Shown here: one piece after another, positions 1-49,506 of the stretch
Layout: every line of letters starts with the position of its first letter
How positions within the stretch are numbered: position 1 is the first letter of the stretch
From: Patescibacteria group bacterium
GTDB taxonomy: Bacteria; Patescibacteriota; Minisyncoccia; Moranbacterales; UBA2206
Length of the DNA: 64,000 nucleotides
Assembly (NCBI GenBank): GCA_022711335.1
Contig: JAKLFF010000002.1
Location: 82,988 to 146,987 of the forward strand
Direction of reading: 5' to 3'
Program-made: the position numbers and the translations under genes
Notes under the pieces: generated by a model
Told to the model about the DNA's origin: nothing
Seen by the model: the letters and a program-made list of their open reading frames with translations, nothing else
Databases searched by the model: none

Positions 1-1413
<1,413 letters not shown>

Positions 1414-4097: not shown

Positions 4098-6275
4098 ATG
4101 ATACATTTGGATACCCCTCTTAAAAACATTTCTAAAATCACCCCTAAATACGCCAAAGTTTTGGAAAAAATGGGCCTCGTTACTGTCCAGGATTTTTTGT
4201 TGTATTTCCCTTTCCGCTATGATGATTTTTCAAAAACCGTGGAATTGGGTCAGAATTATCTGGGTGAAACTATAACGGTCGAAGGAACAATTATAAAAGC
4301 CAAGAATATCAGAATTTTCAGGCGAAAAATGACAATCACGGAAATTGTCATTCAAGATAAAAACAACACCCCGTTAAAAACAGTTTGGTTTAATCAGCCC
4401 TATATTTTAGAAAATTTAAAAGAGGGCGAGTCAATCAGATTGTCCGGAAAATTGGCAATCGATAAAAAGATTTTTTCCATGGCTAATCCCGCCTGGGAAA
4501 AAGCTTCGCGCGATGCGACCAATACTGGAAGACTGGTCCCAGTTTACAGCGAAACTGCCGGCATTTCTTCCAAGTGGATCCGCTGGCAGATAAAGCCGCT
4601 TCTTCGATTTGCCAAAGATATTCCGGATATTTTACCAGAAGAAACAAGAAAAAAATTTAATCTCTATGATCTCCGCACAGCCATAACCCAGATTCATTTT
4701 CCGGATTCCCGCGAAAAACTGGTACGTGCCCAAAAAAGAATGGCTTTTCAAGAAATGTTTTTGGTCCAGCTCAAATCTTTGCAAGTTAAAAAACAATGGG
4801 AGAAAAATAACTCTATTGATATCAAATTCGATGAGAAATTAATCAAGGAATTTGTAGAAAAACTTCCATTCAAATTGACTAACGCGCAAAGAAAAGCCTC
4901 TTTTGAAATTCTAAAAGACCTCGAAAAATCAAAGCCGATGAACCGGCTGCTTGAAGGCGACGTCGGATCGGGAAAAACAGTCGTCGCGGCTATCTCCACG
5001 CTACAATCTATCTCGGCAGGTTATCAAGTAGCCATTATGGCGCCGACAGAAGTCTTGGCGCGGCAGCACTTTGAAAGTTTTTGCAAGTTATTTGAGAATT
5101 ACGGAATAAACATAGCCCTGTTGACAAATTCTTACCAAGAGATTAACAATTTTCAATTTTCAATTTTCAATTTTCAATCAATTTTCAATGACAAAATTTT
5201 AAAAAATAAAAAAAATAGCAGAGAATATTTATTAAAAAGTACAGCAGATGGAAAAATAAATTTAATAGTAGGAACACATGCTCTTATTCAAAAAGACGTA
5301 AGATTCAAGAATTTGGCTTTAATTATTATCGACGAACAGCATCGCTTCGGAGTGGCGCAACGTGCAACTTTGCAACAAGAAACGATGAGTATAAAAGACC
5401 CCGTAAAGTCGCCTAACGGCGACCACGGGGCAAGCGGCGAGATTAAAACTATCTCCCATCTTCTCACTATGACTGCTACGCCTATCCCGAGAACTTTAGC
5501 CATCGCTTTTTTTGGCAGCCTGGGTCTTTCAATTCTTGACGAAATGCCTAAAAACCGAAAGCCGATTGTCACTAAAATTGTCCCGCCCTCTGCCAGAAAT
5601 CAAAATTATAATTTCATCCGGCAGGAAATTGGATCCGGACGGCAGGTTTTTGTCATTTTCCCGCTAATTGAAGAATCAAAGGCTCTCTCGGAAGTGAAAG
5701 CGGCCGCAGAAGAATATAAAAAACTGCAGGATATATTTCCGGATTTTGAAATCGGACTTTTGCATGGACGAATGAAGCCAAAAGAAAAAGAAGAAACTAT
5801 GCAATTTTTTAAAGAGCAAAAAACTAAAATCCTTGTTTCCACTTCTGTTATTGAAGTCGGCATTGATATCCCGAACGCCACAGTTATGATCATTGAAAAT
5901 GCCGAAAGATTCGGGCTTTCCCAGCTTCATCAATTCCGCGGCCGTGTTGGCCGGGGCGAGCATCAGTCGTATTGTTTCCTTTTCACTGAAAGTAACACTC
6001 AAAAATCCATTGAAAGACTAAAAGCCCTTGAAAAAACCAATGACGGATTCGAGATCTCCAAAATCGATCTGGAACTGCGCGGTCCCGGACAATTTTTCGG
6101 CACAATTCAATCCGGCCTTCCAGACATCACCATGGAGAATCTGAGCAATGTGAAACTCATTAAATTCGCCCGCGAGGAAGCCACTAATTTGTTAAAAGTT
6201 GACCCCCGACTAAAAAAGCACCCGCTTTTGGCAGATGCTCTTTTGAGATTTTCAGAGAAGATTCACTTGGAATGA
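4098..6275 (+). CDS. recG: ATP-dependent DNA helicase RecG
   Basis: Has a wedge/OB N-terminal region, helicase motif I GDVGSGKT, motif II DEQHRFG, TATPIPRT and the downstream RecG signature. It also carries two internal insertions (features 5147-5190 and 5399-5430). Confidence 0.9.
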   Translation: MIHLDTPLKNISKITPKYAKVLEKMGLVTVQDFLLYFPFRYDDFSKTVELGQNYLGETITVEGTIIKAKNIRIFRRKMTITEIVIQDKNNTPLKTVWFNQPYILENLKEGESIRLSGKLAIDKKIFSMANPAWEKASRDATNTGRLVPVYSETAGISSKWIRWQIKPLLRFAKDIPDILPEETRKKFNLYDLRTAITQIHFPDSREKLVRAQKRMAFQEMFLVQLKSLQVKKQWEKNNSIDIKFDEKLIKEFVEKLPFKLTNAQRKASFEILKDLEKSKPMNRLLEGDVGSGKTVVAAISTLQSISAGYQVAIMAPTEVLARQHFESFCKLFENYGINIALLTNSYQEINNFQFSIFNFQSIFNDKILKNKKNSREYLLKSTADGKINLIVGTHALIQKDVRFKNLALIIIDEQHRFGVAQRATLQQETMSIKDPVKSPNGDHGASGEIKTISHLLTMTATPIPRTLAIAFFGSLGLSILDEMPKNRKPIVTKIVPPSARNQNYNFIRQEIGSGRQVFVIFPLIEESKALSEVKAAAEEYKKLQDIFPDFEIGLLHGRMKPKEKEETMQFFKEQKTKILVSTSVIEVGIDIPNATVMIIENAERFGLSQLHQFRGRVGRGEHQSYCFLFTESNTQKSIERLKALEKTNDGFEISKIDLELRGPGQFFGTIQSGLPDITMENLSNVKLIKFAREEATNLLKVDPRLKKHPLLADALLRFSEKIHLE
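5147..5190. repeat. Microsatellite (AATTTTC)n of about 6 units inside the recG reading frame
   Basis: caattttcaattttcaattttcaattttcaatcaattttcaatg encodes NNFQFSIFNFQSIFN, in-frame between helicase motifs I and II. Confidence 0.8.
5399..5430. repeat. 32-bp palindromic element inserted in-frame in recG
   Basis: CCCCGTAAAGTCGCCTAACGGCGACCACGGGG encodes PVKSPNGDHGA. It reappears in reverse orientation at 36089-36121 as ccccgtggtcgccgttgaggcgactttacgggg. Confidence 0.75.
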
Positions 6276-7474
6276 TTCTCTATTGCTTTTTCATATACCA
6301 CCAGCATTTTTTTGGCGCAAACTGACGCCGTGAAATTTTCTCTGGCAATTCGCGCAGATTCTTCACCGGTTTTTTCCCTGAGTTTTTTATCCAAAATAAG
6401 TTTTGTGATCATATAGGCAAATTCCTTTTCTCCGGTTACGCAAGTCAGAAATCCGTTTCTGTTGTTTTGGACGAGACTAATCACGCCTGTCGCGCAGACA
6501 GCCACAACCGGAAGCCCCATATACATAGCCTCCGTAAGAACCATCCCTTGAGTTTCTGACTTAGAACCATAAACAAAAATATCTCCAGCCGCGTAGCAGT
6601 CTTTTATCTCCGATCTCGGAATTATTCCGGAAAAAACGACCTGCTCATAAATTCCATTGTCTTTGCAATATTTTTTAAGCTCCGGAAGGAGATATCCGTC
6701 TCCGGAAACCAAAAATTTCACATTTTTTCTTTCTTTGAGTATTTCCCTCACCGAGCGAAAAACAAATTCAATATTTTTTTCCGCCGTAAGCCGCGTTGCC
6801 AGGAACAAAAGAACTTCATTCTCTTTTATTCCATATTTATCACGAGCTTTTTTCCTGTCGGGATTTTTGAATTCTTCCTCGATTACTCCGGTAGGCACCA
6901 CATAGATTTCTTTTTTCACCCTGTTAAATACGCCTTCGGCGTCCCCGCCTTGCGGGGATTTAACAGGATGAACTCCCCAATTTTTGAGAATCGGAATGAC
7001 TGAATCTGTGGGAACCACGACCGCATCCGCCTGATTGGCAAATTTAACTGCTTTCTTGATCATATAGCCGGCAACAAATTTTTTTGGCAGAAACGGAACA
7101 AAATTCGCATAATAATCATAAAGAGTGTGCCAGGTAAAGACCAGCGGAACTTTTTTCCTTTTTGCCCACTTTCGGGCCGCTGATCCTAGAAGATTTGGAT
7201 GCTGGGAGTGGATTACATCGATTTTCAATTCGTTTAAAATTTTGCTAATTTTCCTCGAATATGGAATAACCAAAGGAAATTTTATTTTTATTTCAAGATT
7301 AATGGATGGGTAGCGGAAAATATTCGGATCTTTATCTGCATAGCCCGGAAAGTGCGGCGCGAAAATATATACAGTATGGCCAAGTTTTTCAAATTCCCTC
7401 CGAAAAGTTTCAATTGATGTCGAAACGCCATAGGGATTAGGAAGATAATTGTTCGTAAAAATTGCAATATTCAC
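6263..7474 (-). CDS. Glycosyltransferase family 4 (GT-B fold)
   Basis: Has the N-terminal IAIFTNNYLPNPYGVSTS motif and a C-terminal EXXXXXXXE-like region typical of GT4. The start is ambiguous. The ORF track uses TTG at 7507, but I favour GTG at 7474, which gives MNIAIF and directly abuts the element terminus. Confidence 0.75.
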   Translation of the reverse strand: MNIAIFTNNYLPNPYGVSTSIETFRREFEKLGHTVYIFAPHFPGYADKDPNIFRYPSINLEIKIKFPLVIPYSRKISKILNELKIDVIHSQHPNLLGSAARKWAKRKKVPLVFTWHTLYDYYANFVPFLPKKFVAGYMIKKAVKFANQADAVVVPTDSVIPILKNWGVHPVKSPQGGDAEGVFNRVKKEIYVVPTGVIEEEFKNPDRKKARDKYGIKENEVLLFLATRLTAEKNIEFVFRSVREILKERKNVKFLVSGDGYLLPELKKYCKDNGIYEQVVFSGIIPRSEIKDCYAAGDIFVYGSKSETQGMVLTEAMYMGLPVVAVCATGVISLVQNNRNGFLTCVTGEKEFAYMITKLILDKKLREKTGEESARIARENFTASVCAKKMLVVYEKAIENHSK

Positions 7475-7604
7475 CCGGTAGTGAAATTTTGACTGGCCTT
7501 CCGTCAATAAAGCATAGATGGCTCAGAAAAAATTTTATTAAAAATTATTCTAAATAAAAATTTTTGTAACCCGGGTTCTTTAATGTCAAAATTCTACTAC
7601 CGGG
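7474..7604. mobile_element. Inverted-repeat (MITE-like) element copy 1, 131 bp with 20-bp terminal inverted repeats and a 4-bp target duplication TTCA
   Basis: The left end is cccggtagtgaaattttgac at 7474-7493 and the right end is gtcaaaattctactaccggg at 7585-7604. ttca at 7470-7473 is repeated at 7605-8608 region start, namely 7605-7608. The interior is AT-rich. The glycosyltransferase GTG start overlaps the element terminus. Confidence 0.7.
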
Positions 7605-7611
7605 TTCATAA

Positions 7612-8496
7612 TTAATTTTTGTCGATAAAATTTAAAATTTCCTCAAATACGCTCTCGTTTTTGATATCAGAAATAAAAGTATGATATGCTCTTTTAATAT
7701 ATTTTTTTTCTTTAATTTTCGATCCTACCTGATCATAGATCTTTTCCAAGCTTTTTTTAGTGACAATATGGTCGCTTTTGGATTGAATCACGAAACAGGG
7801 CTGCACAACTTTAGTAACATATTTTCTGGCAATTTCAACCAGCTTGAAAGTTTCAATAGCACTTGAAATCGGATAGGCTTGATAAGCAATTAGCCTGGTT
7901 ATCGTCGTGGAAATTCCAAAAGTCGGCGGATAATATTTTTTGTTATATTCCTTAAAGAAGCTCATGAATTTGGCAAAACGCAGAGCGATTTTTTCATACT
8001 TCAATTTGTACGGCATAGCCATGAGAATAAGTCCGGCTATATCCGTTTTTTTGCCGGCTAAAATTACAGCCAGGCACGCCCCGATTGAAGTTCCAGCCAC
8101 ATACACCTTGTCATGATCTTTCTTAAGCTCATCATAACTTTTCTTTATATCCTCAAGCCAATCGGTCCAATGCACATTTTTAAGATCGCTCTGAACAGTT
8201 CCGTGCCCTCGAAGCATCGGCCCGGAAGCCGTATAGCCGTTTTCATTAAGATATCTTCCGAGCCGCCTTAATTCATAGGGAACTGCTGTCCATCCATGAA
8301 CCAGCAAAACTGCCCTTCCATTTTTTCCTTTAAAATAAAAAGGCTGATTGATCAAATGCTTTTCTTCTTCAAGAAGGAGATCTGGATCAGCAAACAAAAC
8401 ACCTTTTACTGTTTTCAGTATTTTTTTTACCCCGTTAAGCTGTGCTGGTTTTACTCTGCCGCCGACAGCTCCAACGGAGAAGCTTCTCTTTTTCAT
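7612..8496 (-). CDS. Alpha/beta-fold hydrolase (esterase/lipase-like)
   Basis: Has the nucleophile elbow GTSIGA (GxSxG) and HGW near the N-terminus. Length 294 aa. Confidence 0.7.
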   Translation of the reverse strand: MKKRSFSVGAVGGRVKPAQLNGVKKILKTVKGVLFADPDLLLEEEKHLINQPFYFKGKNGRAVLLVHGWTAVPYELRRLGRYLNENGYTASGPMLRGHGTVQSDLKNVHWTDWLEDIKKSYDELKKDHDKVYVAGTSIGACLAVILAGKKTDIAGLILMAMPYKLKYEKIALRFAKFMSFFKEYNKKYYPPTFGISTTITRLIAYQAYPISSAIETFKLVEIARKYVTKVVQPCFVIQSKSDHIVTKKSLEKIYDQVGSKIKEKKYIKRAYHTFISDIKNESVFEEILNFIDKN

Positions 8497-45901: not shown

Positions 45902-47677
45902 ATGTTTAGAAAAACTTCAGCGGTTTCCGGACTGGCACAGACCTTTCCGGGCGTAGCCGTAACACCGAAAACCGCCGAAAAAAAGGCGCCTTCTTTCCGT
46001 CCGGCCGGAAAAAGCAACCTTAAAATTATCCCTCTCGGAGGATTAGAAGAAGTCGGACGCAATATGACCATATTTGAATACGGCCATGATATTATTATTG
46101 TCGATATGGGCCTCCAATTCCCTGACGAAGACATGCCGGGAATTGACTACATCATTCCCGATGTGTCCTATCTCAAAGGAAAAGAAAAAAATATTTTGGG
46201 AGTCATCATTACTCATGGACATTACGACCACATCGGAGCTATTCCGCACATTATGGAAAAAATCGGCAACCCGCCGATTTATATGACGGAACTTACCCGC
46301 GGGATTGTAATGAAAAGGCAAGAAGAATTCAAAGATAAATCCCCGCTCAACATCCATACTGTAAAAAAAATAGACCGCATGCGATTGGGATCTTTTAATA
46401 TTGAATTTTTTCATGTCAATCATACTATTCCTGACGCGGTTGGATTGTCGATATCAACCCCGGTTGGAACCATAATTCATACCGGTGATTTTAAATTCGA
46501 TCATTCTCCGATATCCGACGCTCCAGCCGATATTGCCAAAATTGCGCGGCTGGGAAGCGAAAATATTCTGGCTCTCATGAGCGATTCGACTGACTCGCGC
46601 ACTCCCGGATATTCCCTCTCCGAATCGAGAATTTCCAAAACTTTGGAAGAAATATTCGAACACACCGAAGGACGGCTGATTATCGCCACTTTTTCCGCCC
46701 TTATTTCCCGTATCCAGTCAGTAGTAAATGCCGCGGAAAAATATGGAAGAAAACTGGCAGTCGACGGATATTCCATGAAAACCAACGTTGAAATCGCGAG
46801 AACCTTGGGATATATCCAGGCCAGAAAAGGAACTTTCATCCCTATTGGAAAAGTCAATGAATATCAGGACAACAAGGTGGCAATAATCTGCACCGGAGCG
46901 CAAGGAGAATCCAACGCTGTTCTTATGCGGATCGTAAACGGAGAACACCGATTCGTGAAAGTCCATAAAGACGACACCTTTGTGCTTTCCTCTTCGGTCA
47001 TTCCGGGAAATGAACGAACTGTCCAGGCCATTATGGACACGATTTATAGAAAGGACGCTAAAGTGATAAATTACAAAATGATGGATGTCCATGCCGGAGG
47101 GCACGCCCGACAGGAAGATCTCAAAATGATGATCAATCTCGTCCGTCCAAAATACCTGATCCCCATTCACGGAAACTATTTTATGCTAAAGCTCCATGGT
47201 GAACTGGGTACATCAGTGGGCATGGATCCGAAAAATATCTTGATTGGAGAAAATGGAAAAGTGATTGAATTCGATTATCGCGGAAACGGAAAGGTGACAA
47301 ACGAAAAAGTCCCAACCAATCATGTCATGGTGGACGGATTGGGCGTTGGCGACATCGGGCAAGTTGTTCTTCGCGACCGCCAGGTTCTGGCCAAAGACGG
47401 CATGTTTGTAATCACAACTATTGTTGACGGGAAAACAAACAAAATCATCGGAAAGCCGCAAGTAACCTCGAGAGGTTTCATATTCGTCAAGGAAAATTTC
47501 GACCTGGTTAATGCCACGAAAAAGAAAGTGGAAGAAGTCATTACCCAGAAAACCACGCCTAACGAACCGGCCAATTGGGATTATGTAAAAAACAACATTA
47601 GGGAAGTCGTCGGACAATTCCTCTATGCCAAAACCCAACGAAGACCGATGGTGCTGCCTGTTATCATAGAAGTTTAA
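45902..47677 (+). CDS. rnj: Ribonuclease J (metallo-beta-lactamase / beta-CASP RNase)
   Basis: Has the HxHxDH motif IITHGHYDHIGAIP and beta-CASP motifs. The N-terminal extension is unusual and the alternative TTG start at 45887 is possible. Confidence 0.85.
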   Translation: MFRKTSAVSGLAQTFPGVAVTPKTAEKKAPSFRPAGKSNLKIIPLGGLEEVGRNMTIFEYGHDIIIVDMGLQFPDEDMPGIDYIIPDVSYLKGKEKNILGVIITHGHYDHIGAIPHIMEKIGNPPIYMTELTRGIVMKRQEEFKDKSPLNIHTVKKIDRMRLGSFNIEFFHVNHTIPDAVGLSISTPVGTIIHTGDFKFDHSPISDAPADIAKIARLGSENILALMSDSTDSRTPGYSLSESRISKTLEEIFEHTEGRLIIATFSALISRIQSVVNAAEKYGRKLAVDGYSMKTNVEIARTLGYIQARKGTFIPIGKVNEYQDNKVAIICTGAQGESNAVLMRIVNGEHRFVKVHKDDTFVLSSSVIPGNERTVQAIMDTIYRKDAKVINYKMMDVHAGGHARQEDLKMMINLVRPKYLIPIHGNYFMLKLHGELGTSVGMDPKNILIGENGKVIEFDYRGNGKVTNEKVPTNHVMVDGLGVGDIGQVVLRDRQVLAKDGMFVITTIVDGKTNKIIGKPQVTSRGFIFVKENFDLVNATKKKVEEVITQKTTPNEPANWDYVKNNIREVVGQFLYAKTQRRPMVLPVIIEV

Positions 47678-47695
47678 AATCTGATTGTATTGTAG

Positions 47696-47722
47696 AGACG
47701 CCCCAATGGGGCGTCTTTTTTG
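47696..47722. terminator. Bidirectional rho-independent terminator
   Basis: agacgcccc-aat-ggggcgtct followed by ttttttg. A convergent gene ends on each side. Confidence 0.7.
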
Positions 47723-47731
47723 TTCTATGTT

Positions 47732-48085
47732 TTATGTTATTCTCCGAAAAGTTATCTTATAAACCGGCTCGTAGGAATTGTCATATTGGTCTTTGACGGC
47801 CACCGTTTTTCCGTCCATAAGCGTGCTCATGGCGACATCCGTTATCATCTCGTTCAGTTCCTTGGCTCTGGCCTTCAGTTTTTCAAATTCATCCCATCTT
47901 CCGCCCATTCTTGACTGGGTTATGCTTTCGATTTGCTTCTTTTTTTCTTTTAACTCTTTAAGTTTTTCTTCAGTTTCTGGAAACTCGTTGGCATTGCCCA
48001 GCGCGTCTTTATATTCCTTTCTTATTTCCTTTTGCTGCTTTTTATTTTCTTCGAGTTCGCTATAAATCTCCTGGATGTCTCGCAT
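47732..48085 (-). CDS. Hypothetical coiled-coil protein of 117 aa
   Basis: K/E-rich with no recognisable domain. Its ATG lies inside the 4-bp target duplication of inverted-repeat element copy 2. Confidence 0.5.
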   Translation of the reverse strand: MRDIQEIYSELEENKKQQKEIRKEYKDALGNANEFPETEEKLKELKEKKKQIESITQSRMGGRWDEFEKLKARAKELNEMITDVAMSTLMDGKTVAVKDQYDNSYEPVYKITFRRIT

Positions 48086-48087
48086 AC

Positions 48088-48214
48088 CCGGTAGTAGAAT
48101 TTTGACTTTTGAATATAAAAATCAAAATCCCATGTTATTATTTAATTAATTATTTTTAACCACGTTTAACCTCAAAACACTGACTCCCGGATCAGTCAAA
48201 ATTCTACTACCGGG
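48088..48214. mobile_element. Inverted-repeat (MITE-like) element copy 2, 127 bp with perfect 20-bp terminal inverted repeats and target duplication CATA
   Basis: cccggtagtagaattttgac ... gtcaaaattctactaccggg. cata lies immediately outside both ends; on the minus strand it reads TATG and supplies the start codon of the gene at 47732-48085. Confidence 0.7.
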
Positions 48215-48363
48215 CATAATCTAAATTTTAAAAAATTAAAATATAGCCGGATCGGCTACAGAAATATTTTAGCATGAATTTAAAATGTAGGGAACGCATA
48301 TATGCGTTCCCTGATACTTGATACTTGATACTTTATGCCCATTACTTTATACTAAAACCATGA

Positions 48364-48504
48364 CCCGGTAGTGAAATTTTGACTGGCTTTTCTACAGAAA
48401 AGCCAACAACCGGGCTAATGTTTTTTTGCAAAAAATAATTATTTTGTGCATAAATAAAAATTTTGGCTTTTATAAGCAATAGATGTCAAAATTCTACTAC
48501 CGGG
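48364..48504. mobile_element. Inverted-repeat (MITE-like) element copy 3, 141 bp with 20-bp terminal inverted repeats and target duplication ATGA
   Basis: cccggtagtgaaattttgac(tggc) ... gtcaaaattctactaccggg. atga at 48360-48363 is repeated at 48505-48508, and the right-hand copy is the trpS ATG. Confidence 0.72.
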
Positions 48505-49506
48505 ATGAGCAAACAGCGCATCTTTTCCGGCGTTGCGCCGTCCGGAAACATACATATAGGCAACTATCTTGGAGCCATTAAAAACTGGGTTAAGCTTCAA
48601 GACGAATGCGACTCTATTTTTTGCGTGGTTGATATGCATGCTATTACCCTGCCAAGAGATCCGGAGGAGCTTAGAAAAAAAACTATCGAAGTAGCTAAAA
48701 TTTATCTGGCTAGCGGAATCGACTTAGAAAAATCGACTTTATTTATACAATCTCATATACCCGAACACGCGGAATTATCCTGGATATTAAACACAATCGC
48801 CCGAACCGGCGAAATGTCCCGCATGACCCAATTCAAGGATAAAGCTGAACTTCACAGTGGAAATAGCAGCACCATGGAAAGTGTGCCGCTTGGAATATTT
48901 AATTATCCGGTATTAATGGCCGCTGATATTTTACTCTACGACACGCAAGTGGTTCCTGTCGGAAAAGACCAGCTGCAGCATATTGAAATTACCAGAACCC
49001 TGGCTAATAGATTTAACAAAAGATTCGGCAATACCTTTATTGTTCCTGAACCTTATATCACAAAAGAAGGAGCTAATATCATGGGCCTCGACGATCCAAC
49101 TAAGAAAATGTCAAAATCCGCTAAATCTGACTACAATTACATTGCTCTTAATGACTCCGAAGAAGATGTCCGGAGAAAAATCAAAAAAGCTGTCACTGAC
49201 AGCGGATCGGAAATAGTTTATAGAGATGATAAACCGGCGCTGATGAATCTGATTAATATTTATTCCCTACTCTCAGATAAACCCGCCAAAGAGATTGAAA
49301 AACAATATAAAGGTAAAGGCTACGCTGAATTCAAAACAGATTTAGCTGAAGTTATTATAAAATTTATGAATCCTTTTCAGGAAAAAATGAATGATCTTTC
49401 GGATGAAAAAGTTCTTGAAATCCTTCGCGAAGGCGCCGAAAAAGTCCGCCCGATCGCCAAAAATAAGCTTGATGAAGTCAAAAAAAAAATCGGCTTTGTA
49501 TTGTAA
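48505..49506 (+). CDS. trpS: Tryptophan--tRNA ligase
   Basis: MSKQRIFSGVAPSGNIHIGNYLGA has the HIGH-class motif and KKMSKSAKS is the KMSKS motif. The start was chosen at the ATG abutting the element; the ORF-track TTG at 48463 reads through the element. Confidence 0.9.
   Translation: MSKQRIFSGVAPSGNIHIGNYLGAIKNWVKLQDECDSIFCVVDMHAITLPRDPEELRKKTIEVAKIYLASGIDLEKSTLFIQSHIPEHAELSWILNTIARTGEMSRMTQFKDKAELHSGNSSTMESVPLGIFNYPVLMAADILLYDTQVVPVGKDQLQHIEITRTLANRFNKRFGNTFIVPEPYITKEGANIMGLDDPTKKMSKSAKSDYNYIALNDSEEDVRRKIKKAVTDSGSEIVYRDDKPALMNLINIYSLLSDKPAKEIEKQYKGKGYAEFKTDLAEVIIKFMNPFQEKMNDLSDEKVLEILREGAEKVRPIAKNKLDEVKKKIGFVL

Follow-up and report, generated by a model that had tools for sequence, protein, structure and literature searches.

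A mobile inverted-repeat element in the start codon of trpS of a Patescibacteria group bacterium and the hairpin leader that it probably adds to the gene

The start region of trpS, the gene for tryptophan--tRNA ligase, was analysed in a 64,000-nucleotide stretch of DNA (hereafter the window) from a Patescibacteria group bacterium of the Moranbacterales (GenBank assembly GCA_022711335.1, contig JAKLFF010000002.1, positions 82,988 to 146,987 of the forward strand; position 1 is the first letter of the window). Upstream of trpS there are, in this order, two promoter-like hexamers, a first ATGA, a non-coding inverted-repeat element and a second ATGA, with which the gene begins (Table 1). The element is the third of three related copies in the window and is called copy 3. 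Its interior between the two 20-nt arms is 101 nt long. A preliminary description of this locus had reported that the ATGA at one side of an inverted-repeat element is repeated at the other side, and we found both copies present with the element between them.

Comparison with relatives showed that the insertion of copy 3 hit the trpS start codon and produced a staggered duplication of 4 bp, and that an intact ATG was regenerated on the gene side. The trpS site is empty in three syntenic relatives (L145, L142 and L057), each of which has one start codon, and it is these empty orthologous sites that identify an insertion with duplication of ATGA. The empty site of L145, whose TrpS is 85% identical to that of the window, has the structure TTGATA-17-TATACT-tgatat-ATGAGTAAACAA; across the site the sequence reads TTGATActttatatccgatacttTATACTtgatatATGAGTAAACAACGC, with ATGA once only. 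TrpS of L142 is 84% identical, and trpS of L057 is 83% identical at the nucleotide level. Copy 3 is not an assembly artefact, because six further assemblies of the species, obtained from different samples and including GCA_035453105.1 (Candidatus Moranbacteria), are 100% identical in its region over 481 bp. The closest TrpS orthologue (P0002, 87%) has an intergenic spacer of 288 nt, whose length suggests that it holds one of the two elements, copy 2 or copy 3.

The second ATG is the true start of trpS. The public annotation of the identical protein (P0001, 333 aa, tryptophan--tRNA ligase of Candidatus Moranbacteria) begins at MSKQRIF, and 120 orthologues of 64-100% identity share the N-terminus M(x)K(Q/K)RIFSG. 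This alignment agrees with the preliminary description, in which the right-hand ATG opened the conserved N-terminus. The mechanical list of open reading frames (ORFs) starts trpS from TTG 48463, so that MAFISNRCQNSTTG is translated through the 3' arm ahead of MSKQRIF. This extension was carried by 0 of the 120 orthologues. The upstream codons had been described as translated element, and they are indeed read-through of the stop-free 3' arm, but their length is 42 nt (14 codons) and not 42 codons.

Orthologues sharing the element-encoded N-terminal extension had been named in the preliminary description as the sign that would speak against it. No orthologue shares this extension, but three TrpS proteins (P0027, P0050 and P0058) start inside a degenerate related element. 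In the Parcubacteria group metagenome-assembled genome (MAG) L152, such an element (L152:1100-1260) directly follows ATGAAAAA of the ancestral trpS start, whose native ATG has been lost. The annotated ATG of L152, P0027, P0050 and P0058 lies within the element, and the first residues (M-A/T-SQISNG) come from its 3' arm. Because SQISNG of the three proteins comes from this arm, element-encoded N-termini exist in another lineage, and the element of L152 looks as if it had been exapted as start codon and N-terminus.

Copy 3 belongs to a large family. The arm search covered one genome per species (GTDB) and JGI metagenomes, and gave 30 and 111 loci, respectively. The arm pattern of one element end was given as CCCGGTAGTRRAATTTTGAC, and the opposite end is its reverse complement. 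About 98 non-redundant paired copies of 64-145 bp were recovered by this search, which demanded one exact arm and which copies with both arms decayed escape. Most of the named genomes with the element are Patescibacteria (Moranbacteria, Parcubacteria and Saccharibacteria), and several copies per genome were found in other MAGs. In 89 of the 98 copies, one arm is CCCGGTAGTGAAATTTTGAC (type B) and the other is CCCGGTAGTAGAATTTTGAC (type A). The arms are 20 bp long and 90-100% complementary. When one strand is folded, they form a stem of 20 positions in which position 10 is a G.U and position 11 an A.C, and this central mismatch is retained in 92 of 96 copies. The interior is structured as well. 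Of 92 distinct copies, 67 have a hairpin that begins 0-1 nt after the B arm, and its stem occurs in 56 different sequences. RNAalifold of 31 long copies gave a 19-pair arm stem, the B-side hairpin and, directly beside the A arm, another short hairpin; both subterminal hairpins showed compensatory changes in this consensus. Inside long copies, both arm tips recur in degenerate form (CTAnACGGGC and ATTTTGRY). The duplications are 3-5 bp long and varied in sequence (TATG, ATG, ATGA, TGAA, TTGA, CTTG and others). There is no coding capacity for a transposase, because the elements are too short, and the ORFs seen in them are read-through artefacts only. [quoted passage not shown] It has not been described before; no Rfam family or publication was found for it.

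Table 1. Coordinates of the features at trpS, of the other copies in the window and of the insertions at -35 hexamers
Feature	Coordinates	Strand	Remarks
-35-like hexamer TTGATA	48325..48330	+	Consensus scan, TTGATA-17-TATACT with 10/12 matches; putative function
-10-like hexamer TATACT	48348..48353	+	Ends 6 nt before the left ATGA; predicts transcription start at A48360
Left target-site duplication ATGA	48360..48363	+	Vestigial start codon; predicted mRNA 5' end; opens the upstream ORF (uORF)
3-codon uORF ATG ACC CGG TAG	48360-48371	+	Begins at the left ATGA copy
Element copy 3	48364..48504	+	141 bp, non-coding, MITE-like; nhmmer 75 bits (+ strand), 31 bits (- strand)
5' terminal arm, type B, CCCGGTAGTGAAATTTTGAC	48364..48383	+	20 bp
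Subterminal hairpin 1, T-GGCTTTTC-TACA-GAAAAGCC-A	48384..48405	+	From the minimum-free-energy fold; directly 3' of the B arm
Internal ATTTTGGC	48460..48467	+	Imperfect copy of the B arm's inner 8 nt (ATTTTGAC); includes the TTG of the ORF caller (48463)
3' terminal arm GTCAAAATTCTACTACCGGG	48485..48504	+	Reverse complement of type A; no stop codon in any frame
Right target-site duplication ATGA	48505..48508	+	ATG 48505-48507 is the true trpS start
trpS, tryptophan--tRNA ligase, 333 aa	48505..49506	+	Pfam PF00579, E = 5e-78; 100% identical to P0001
Element copy 2	48087..48214	-	128 bp; duplication CATA 48083-48086 and 48215-48218 (TATG on the gene strand)
Element copy 1	7474..7604	+	131 bp; duplication TTCA 7470-7473 and 7605-7608 (TGAA on the gene strand)
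-35-class insertions, main and sister family	L011:3775-3844, L011:4392-4528, L019:1342, L020:3958-4030, L020:6948-7082
-35-class insertions, main and sister family	L048:4631-4709, L083:2421-2495, L093:6331-6409, L127:1262-1386

Most copies of the family are located at start codons. ATG or TATG follows directly after the A arm in 59 of 96 non-redundant copies. At least 50 of these ATG codons open ORFs of at least 100 codons, and most of the others are cut by contig ends. After collapsing the orthologues, the targets amount to 40 different genes, including trpS, dnaB, uppS, recO, rsmI, rplT and the gene of the PFOR gamma subunit. The duplications at start codons are TATG (34 copies), ATG (about 17), ATGA, TGAA and AATG. 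The duplication always restores the motif, either the start codon or the -35 hexamer described below, on the gene side. The A arm faces the gene in about 94% of the long-form start-codon copies, and copy 1 of the window is among the few reversed ones. Gene starts make up 34 of the 116 non-genic TATG sites and 57 of the 296 non-genic ATG sites in the window. This background is far below the more than 90% observed at gene starts, so a tetranucleotide preference combined with the loss of intragenic insertions is insufficient to explain the pattern. A single target consensus was also considered and rejected: most duplications contain TG and have nothing more in common.

The trpS site was hit repeatedly. 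The trpS genes of L016 and L020 carry copies that are non-homologous to copy 3 (interiors 29-46% identical, lengths different, duplication TATG versus ATGA), and L152 has the degenerate element mentioned above. In the genome H41-bin156_1, four similar short copies are all located at start codons.

Many copies without an adjacent ATG abut TTGAC, the -35 hexamer of sigma70-like promoters (TTGAC(A/T)). The same was observed for a sister family, whose arms (CCCCGTAGTAGATTTTCGGC / GGCCGAAAATTCACTACGGGG) have co-varied and keep the same A/B asymmetry. The pattern TTGnnn-16..18-TAnnnT was found at 9 of 13 non-redundant TTGA junctions, compared with 6.6% of 12,771 TTGA sites (p = 1.4e-8), and three of the four failing junctions are near misses. 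The duplication of this class (TTGA or CTTGA) regenerates the hexamer, and the orientation is not biased (7 versus 6). H41-bin156_1 also contains five copies of the sister family, all at TTGA sites, of which four show the strict -35 pattern and one is a near miss. Because the families of this genome differ in their targets, site preference is a property of the subfamily and not of host tolerance alone.

Before the insertion, trpS looks like a leaderless-type gene (TTGATA-17-TATACT-6-ATG). TTGATA-17-TATACT is also found 6 nt before the single ATG at the empty site of L145, and the -10 motif 'tactttatactaaaa' is conserved in L145 and L152. At orthologous element-bearing loci the -10 box is fixed in place and the 6-nt spacer varies. 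Because the box stays while the spacer changes, the old promoter is presumably still used, with transcription reading through the element. The predicted trpS mRNA starts with AUGACCCGGUAG, which contains the uORF of three codons, and the 181-nt RNA at trpS folds with -59.5 kcal/mol (z = -5.8). On this prediction, the trpS mRNA probably carries a hairpin leader of 145 nt. The statement in the preliminary description that trpS has no conventional leader therefore needs refinement: trpS was of the leaderless type before the insertion, and the element itself is now most likely a structured leader. The same description was right that neither a T-box nor a Shine-Dalgarno motif is found at trpS. Rfam cmscan of positions 47500-49000 (E<=1) gave no T-box and only sub-threshold matches of microRNA precursors to the long hairpin, and no GGAGG-like motif is present before 48505.

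A TAnnnT box is located 5-8 nt upstream at 17 of 40 targeted starts, compared with 107 of the 512 crude starts taken as controls (odds ratio 2.8, p = 0.003). The idea that only transcription starts are targeted was rejected as a general rule, since this enrichment of leaderless-type -10 boxes is real but partial (42% versus 21%). Among the crude gene starts of the window, a Shine-Dalgarno-like motif was seen at only about 6 of 59 and a -10-like box 5-8 nt before the ATG at about 11, and most starts follow A/T-rich runs. This composition suggests that initiation in the organism is mainly independent of Shine-Dalgarno pairing and partly leaderless. A conserved geometry of coupling between uORF and gene found no support in the family: the uORFs that open at the upstream ATG have 3-50 codons, occur in all three frames relative to the gene and have no preferred stop position.

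Taken together, we consider it likely that a mobile element occupies the trpS start, that its family resides mostly on start codons, and that the element is read through as a hairpin leader. In this model, transcription would still start at the old +1 (A48360) and pass through the element. The mRNA would begin with AUGA, followed by a Y-shaped hairpin of 141 nt, in which the 20-bp arm stem with its central G.U/A.C mismatch carries the small hairpins on top. The two AUG copies would then lie side by side at the base of the stem, with the true AUG immediately 3' of it, and the insert would form a compact side-branch. Three routes of translation may be envisaged. (a) An RNase specific for double strands, such as RNase III, may cut the 20-bp stem and leave an unstructured leader of roughly 10 nt. 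(b) Ribosomes may initiate directly just 3' of the stem, independently of a Shine-Dalgarno sequence. (c) They may re-initiate after the 3-codon uORF. Route (a) is weakly favoured, because the stem corresponds to two helical turns with the conserved wobble and mismatch at its exact centre, which resembles the processing of the Correia elements of Neisseria. The way in which the downstream AUG is used, and that in which the element finds start codons, are inferred and not shown.

A broader proposal can be made only tentatively. Structured non-coding elements throughout Patescibacteria might actively home to start codons or -35 hexamers, beyond the preference for a 4-bp motif, and might then be kept by host dependence on the hairpin leader. 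Homing could be achieved by recognition of promoter or initiation-region DNA, or by targeting encoded in the folded ends of the element. The preferred model itself includes that the arms of old orthologous copies would be conserved because the host gene depends on correct folding or processing of the insert.

The conservation of the elements was compared in nine orthologous gene groups with third-codon-position identities of 48-75%. Each arm was identical at 18-20 of 20 positions in these groups, and only one of the two arms is forced by the search. The interior (50-97%) exceeded the third codon positions in most orthologous pairs: 94% versus 57% for a response regulator, 89% versus 66% for DnaB, 88-97% versus 62-75% for RsmI, and 73-83% versus 50-59% for PFOR.

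Several observations weigh against our preferred reading or its broader form. The arm conservation is partly due to ascertainment, since an exact arm was searched for and a degenerate copy exists in L152. For copy 1, the comparison of the window with L064 gave a recombination mosaic that ends at the element. Because such a mosaic can make an element appear more conserved than its flanks, this kind of conservation is weak proof of selection. Single changes in the arms were 21 of the G.U type and 13 of the A.C type with no clear strand bias, so that the arm substitutions do not prove pairing at the RNA rather than the DNA level. No pair of arms 400-3000 bp apart around an ORF, as expected of an autonomous partner, was found among 165 loci, and a single DDE transposase would not usually produce direct repeats varying between 3 and 5 bp. 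Some start-codon copies lie at operon-internal genes or at genes led by Shine-Dalgarno sequences, so that transcription-start targeting alone cannot explain the pattern. The transcription start, RNA processing and translation route at trpS are predictions.

Candidates for autonomous relatives were examined individually. 'Single' arms, which might have been ends of autonomous elements, were explained by contig ends or by partner arms bearing indels. Outward-facing arms spaced by ~2 kb in L063, L103 and L138 belong to two separate small elements. A Pfam scan found no transposase among the 36 proteins of the window. In viral contigs, all 12 matches were a lone arm in a conserved, apparently Hsp20-like phage coding region with no partner arm, and were ascribed to chance. 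The B-arm 20-mer thus occurs by chance in a small-heat-shock-like gene of marine phage and TARA contigs (L154-L165, L046, L059, L060, L079, L099 and L110). In one locus (L098:1021-1164) an element is nested in the subterminal hairpin loop of another. Several short copies sit at the apex of small palindromes, for example in L093 (GGCTTG|TCAAGCC) and L102 (CCAGCT...AGCTGG).

All three copies of the window are located at start codons. The window contains six occurrences of the 20-mer arm, which form three inverted pairs, while 0.02 are expected by chance, and nhmmer with the family profile found exactly these three copies (7474-7604, 48087-48214 and 48364-48504) and none further. Copy 2 lies at the ATG of a divergently transcribed ORF of 117 aa (47732-48085, minus strand). 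Its site is empty in L142 and L145, with one CATA. L057 has copy 2 without copy 3, and copy 3 is therefore the younger insertion. The two arms of copy 2 in the window (48087-48106 and 48195-48214) are both of type A and form a perfect 20-bp palindrome. In L057 (L057:1-109), copy 2 has the usual B and A arms and an interior 100% identical to that of the window. A 2-nt change has made one arm of the window copy identical to the other; such a conversion would be expected when the arms pair and their mismatch is occasionally corrected.

Copy 1 has the rare reverse orientation and interrupts the ATGAA with which a glycosyltransferase gene (6263-7474, minus strand; Glycos_transf_1) originally began; this gene now starts with a GTG composed of the last G of the arm and TG. 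It split a tightly coupled gene junction, TAA-TT-ATGAA (7470-7474 and 7605-7614), and the original ATG was left upstream of the element. The ORF caller placed the start of this gene at a TTG inside copy 1 (7507). L064 shares copy 1 at 96% identity. When positions 6870-8200 were aligned with L064:4190-5520, the identity was 96.2% in the element, 96.3% in the hydrolase-gene flank and 80.5% in the glycosyltransferase flank, and the sequences place a breakpoint of recombination or replacement at copy 1.

The region upstream of trpS varies between close relatives. Between copies 2 and 3 (48289-48335) the window has a perfect palindrome of 12+12 bp with no spacer (AGGGAACGCATA/TATGCGTTCCCT). The three tandem GATACTT heptamers after it include the -35-like TTGATA of trpS, and similar repeats are present in L145 and L152. 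Palindrome and heptamers may serve the divergent genes as an operator or as a terminator. L057 (L057:230-430) has an extra small ORF led by a Shine-Dalgarno sequence (ATGTCCGACAAAGAA...) between the 117-aa gene and trpS, which is absent in the window.

The accumulation at start codons may also be a matter of survivorship, and we regard this as possible. In this case the element would insert at TG-containing sites (TATG, ATGA or TTGA), and in streamlined genomes only those insertions that regenerate the motif would be tolerated. These would then be protected from loss, because an imprecise deletion would kill the gene. The regular restoration of the gene-side motif and the prevalence of housekeeping genes among the targets are in line with this, as is the occurrence of off-consensus duplications (TGAA, TTCA) at start codons, too, with the element in either orientation. 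The filter need only be modest, since gene starts already account for about 20-30% of the non-genic ATG and TATG sites. Such a filter has more difficulty with H41-bin156_1: all of its similar, apparently young copies occupy start codons, but the sister family, exposed to the same filter, occupies -35 boxes. Insertions should also be scattered through the neutral zones upstream of -35 hexamers; instead, 9-12 of 13 TTGA junctions lie exactly at the hexamer. The non-homologous trpS copies of different lineages (window versus L016/L020) speak against survivorship as well.

The element could also be primarily a cis-regulatory RNA leader of the host, domesticated, bound by a protein or cleaved by an RNase, and selected as a regulator; this we think somewhat doubtful. 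Empty sites in close relatives mean that the genes work without the element, the tagged genes form no evident regulon, and no Rfam family matches. It would account for arms and much of the interior exceeding synonymous-site conservation in several pairs, and for the interior of copy 2 being unchanged between the window and L057 while trpS is 83% identical, but a recombination mosaic can mimic such conservation and degenerate copies exist. The conserved central mismatch and the covarying subterminal hairpins fit a functional RNA. The orientation bias fits as well, being about 94% where the element is transcribed (ATG class) and none where it is outside the transcript (-35 class, 7 versus 6).

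Copy 3 might instead drive trpS from an outward promoter of its own, with TTGGCT (48463-48468), an 18-nt spacer and CAAAAT in the A arm. The trpS leader would then be about 6 nt long, with no hairpin in the mRNA. This TTGGCT-18-CAAAAT is weakly promoter-like. TTGnnn is found 15-20 nt (mode 16-17) upstream of the CAAAAT of the arm in about 25 of 56 long copies and is thus a subfamily feature; such a promoter would explain why the A-arm side faces the gene. We consider this promoter unlikely for trpS: CAAAAT is a weak -10 box, the consensus scan did not report this promoter on the plus strand, the native -10 box remains conserved upstream of element-bearing orthologues, and in copy 1 the promoter would fire away from the gene. 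As a general mechanism an internal promoter was rejected, because the motif is present in under half of the long copies and is missing from all short start-codon copies.

Template switching mediated by microhomology between gene-start or promoter sequences would need no transposase, and the 'duplication' would be microhomology of the donor site. Direct repeats of 3, 4 or 5 bp that are specific for the subfamily (ATG versus TTGA), the lack of a transposase partner among the loci searched and the tendency of hairpin DNA to favour fork stalling are compatible with it. It is nevertheless improbable, as it leaves unexplained the nested insertion into a hairpin loop (L098) and the near-invariant asymmetric 20-bp ends across distant lineages, which look like protein recognition sites; moreover, microhomology of 3-4 nt would strike any ATG and not only gene starts. 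Finally, it is very improbable that TrpS is made from the upstream TTG (48463) with 14 additional residues, as the ORF caller predicted, for although the frame is open through the 3' arm and TrpS of L152 appears to begin inside a related element, this extension is in no orthologue, the N-terminus is conserved in the 120 sequences, the native ATG is intact, and TTG is a weak start codon in a paired region of the predicted fold.

The preferred reading, an inserted element transcribed as a hairpin leader, has practical and biological consequences. Gene callers routinely mis-start element-bearing genes because the 3' arm is stop-free in all frames, and annotations of candidate phyla are thus expected to hold false N-terminal extensions. 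In genomes of roughly 1 Mb, a hairpin of 64-145 nt is wedged between promoter and start codon of the essential trpS and of many housekeeping genes. How these genes are translated bears on leaderless and Shine-Dalgarno-independent initiation and on RNA processing, in a lineage with almost no experimental genetics. The conserved arms offer a simple 20-nt probe for the enzyme that moves the elements. If true, the landing on start codons and -35 boxes would be an unusual landmark-directed integration in bacteria and a possible tool for tagging gene starts. If both homing and host dependence were true, the family would represent, in ultra-small genomes, a novel type of 5'-leader parasite or regulator with an 'addictive' character.

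The family was compared with known mobile and repeated sequences. Ty3, a eukaryotic long-terminal-repeat retrotransposon tethered by TFIIIB, integrates within a few nucleotides of RNA polymerase III transcription starts. The likeness is an analogy only, in that integration occurs near an expression landmark, while operon-internal start codons are also hit here. Miniatures of IS200/IS605 insertion sequences (palindrome-associated transposable elements, PATEs) and attC sites have subterminal hairpins conserved in structure and not in sequence, and a short specific sequence gives them oriented insertion. Subterminal hairpins are also present in our elements. IS200/IS605 members, however, lack terminal inverted repeats and duplications and insert 3' of a fixed tetra- or pentanucleotide, whereas the element described here has perfect 20-bp terminal repeats and true duplications. 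The attC sites also have conserved inverted ends that are imperfect, their mismatches being fixed, around a centre that varies within 57-141 bp. They differ by their GTTRRRY/RYYYAAC boxes and by their cassette arrays next to intI; the outer ends found here are CCCGG...CCGGG, dispersed at housekeeping genes.

Other short repeats are closer in their position or shape. Rickettsia palindromic elements (RPE) are palindromic mobile repeats tolerated in the expressed part of essential genes in reduced genomes (PMC3733652). They are in frame and translated, whereas our element lies between duplicated start codons and is untranslated into the TrpS protein. Repetitive extragenic palindromic (REP) sequences are palindromic repeats mobilised by Y1 transposases of the RAYT (REP-associated tyrosine transposase) type. 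Each REP unit forms a stem-loop by itself and bears GTAG or CGTC as a tag at its end, and REP dimers, or bacterial interspersed mosaic elements (BIMEs), consist of two inverted units 20-100 bp apart that form one large stem-loop, some with a small stem-loop at the spacer end (PMC3733652). Paired inverted units are common to both systems, and the arms here contain GTAG at positions 5-8. However, GTAG is internal in our arms, a single arm is not self-complementary, and neither target-site duplications nor a position at start codons are described for REPs. REP2 of Neisseria and the inverted repeats (IR) of Borrelia are stem-loop repeats immediately upstream of many genes that include the ATG of the downstream gene (PMC3184786). 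They supply promoter, ribosome-binding site and ATG without terminal inverted repeats or duplication, whereas the ATG here is duplicated host sequence and empty sites exist.

The Correia elements of Neisseria (Correia repeat enclosed elements, CREE) are the closest in form. Their hairpins are substrates of RNase III, and some copies give rise to promoters. They are short and dispersed, have terminal repeats and a duplication, are often located on the 5' side of genes, and are co-transcribed as long hairpins (PMC3184786). Both families are short (about 100-155 bp), non-coding and dispersed, with terminal inverted repeats, a target-site duplication and a hairpin fold. They differ in that the end sequences are unrelated: the 26-bp Correia terminal repeats are missing here, and the duplication is 3-5 bp with ATG or TTGA and not TA. 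The host is also different (Patescibacteria), and the new family has the conserved asymmetry of left and right arms and the covarying subterminal hairpins. The arm sequence was found in no paper of the library searched, and no report was found of Correia elements or other prokaryotic MITEs landing exactly on start codons or -35 hexamers. The element has every structural feature of a MITE (size, non-coding sequence, terminal repeats, duplication, dispersed polymorphic copies) save an identified parent insertion sequence. In conclusion, the element is a variant of the MITE kind, and there is a sizeable chance that its targeting or the dependence of its host is mechanistically new.

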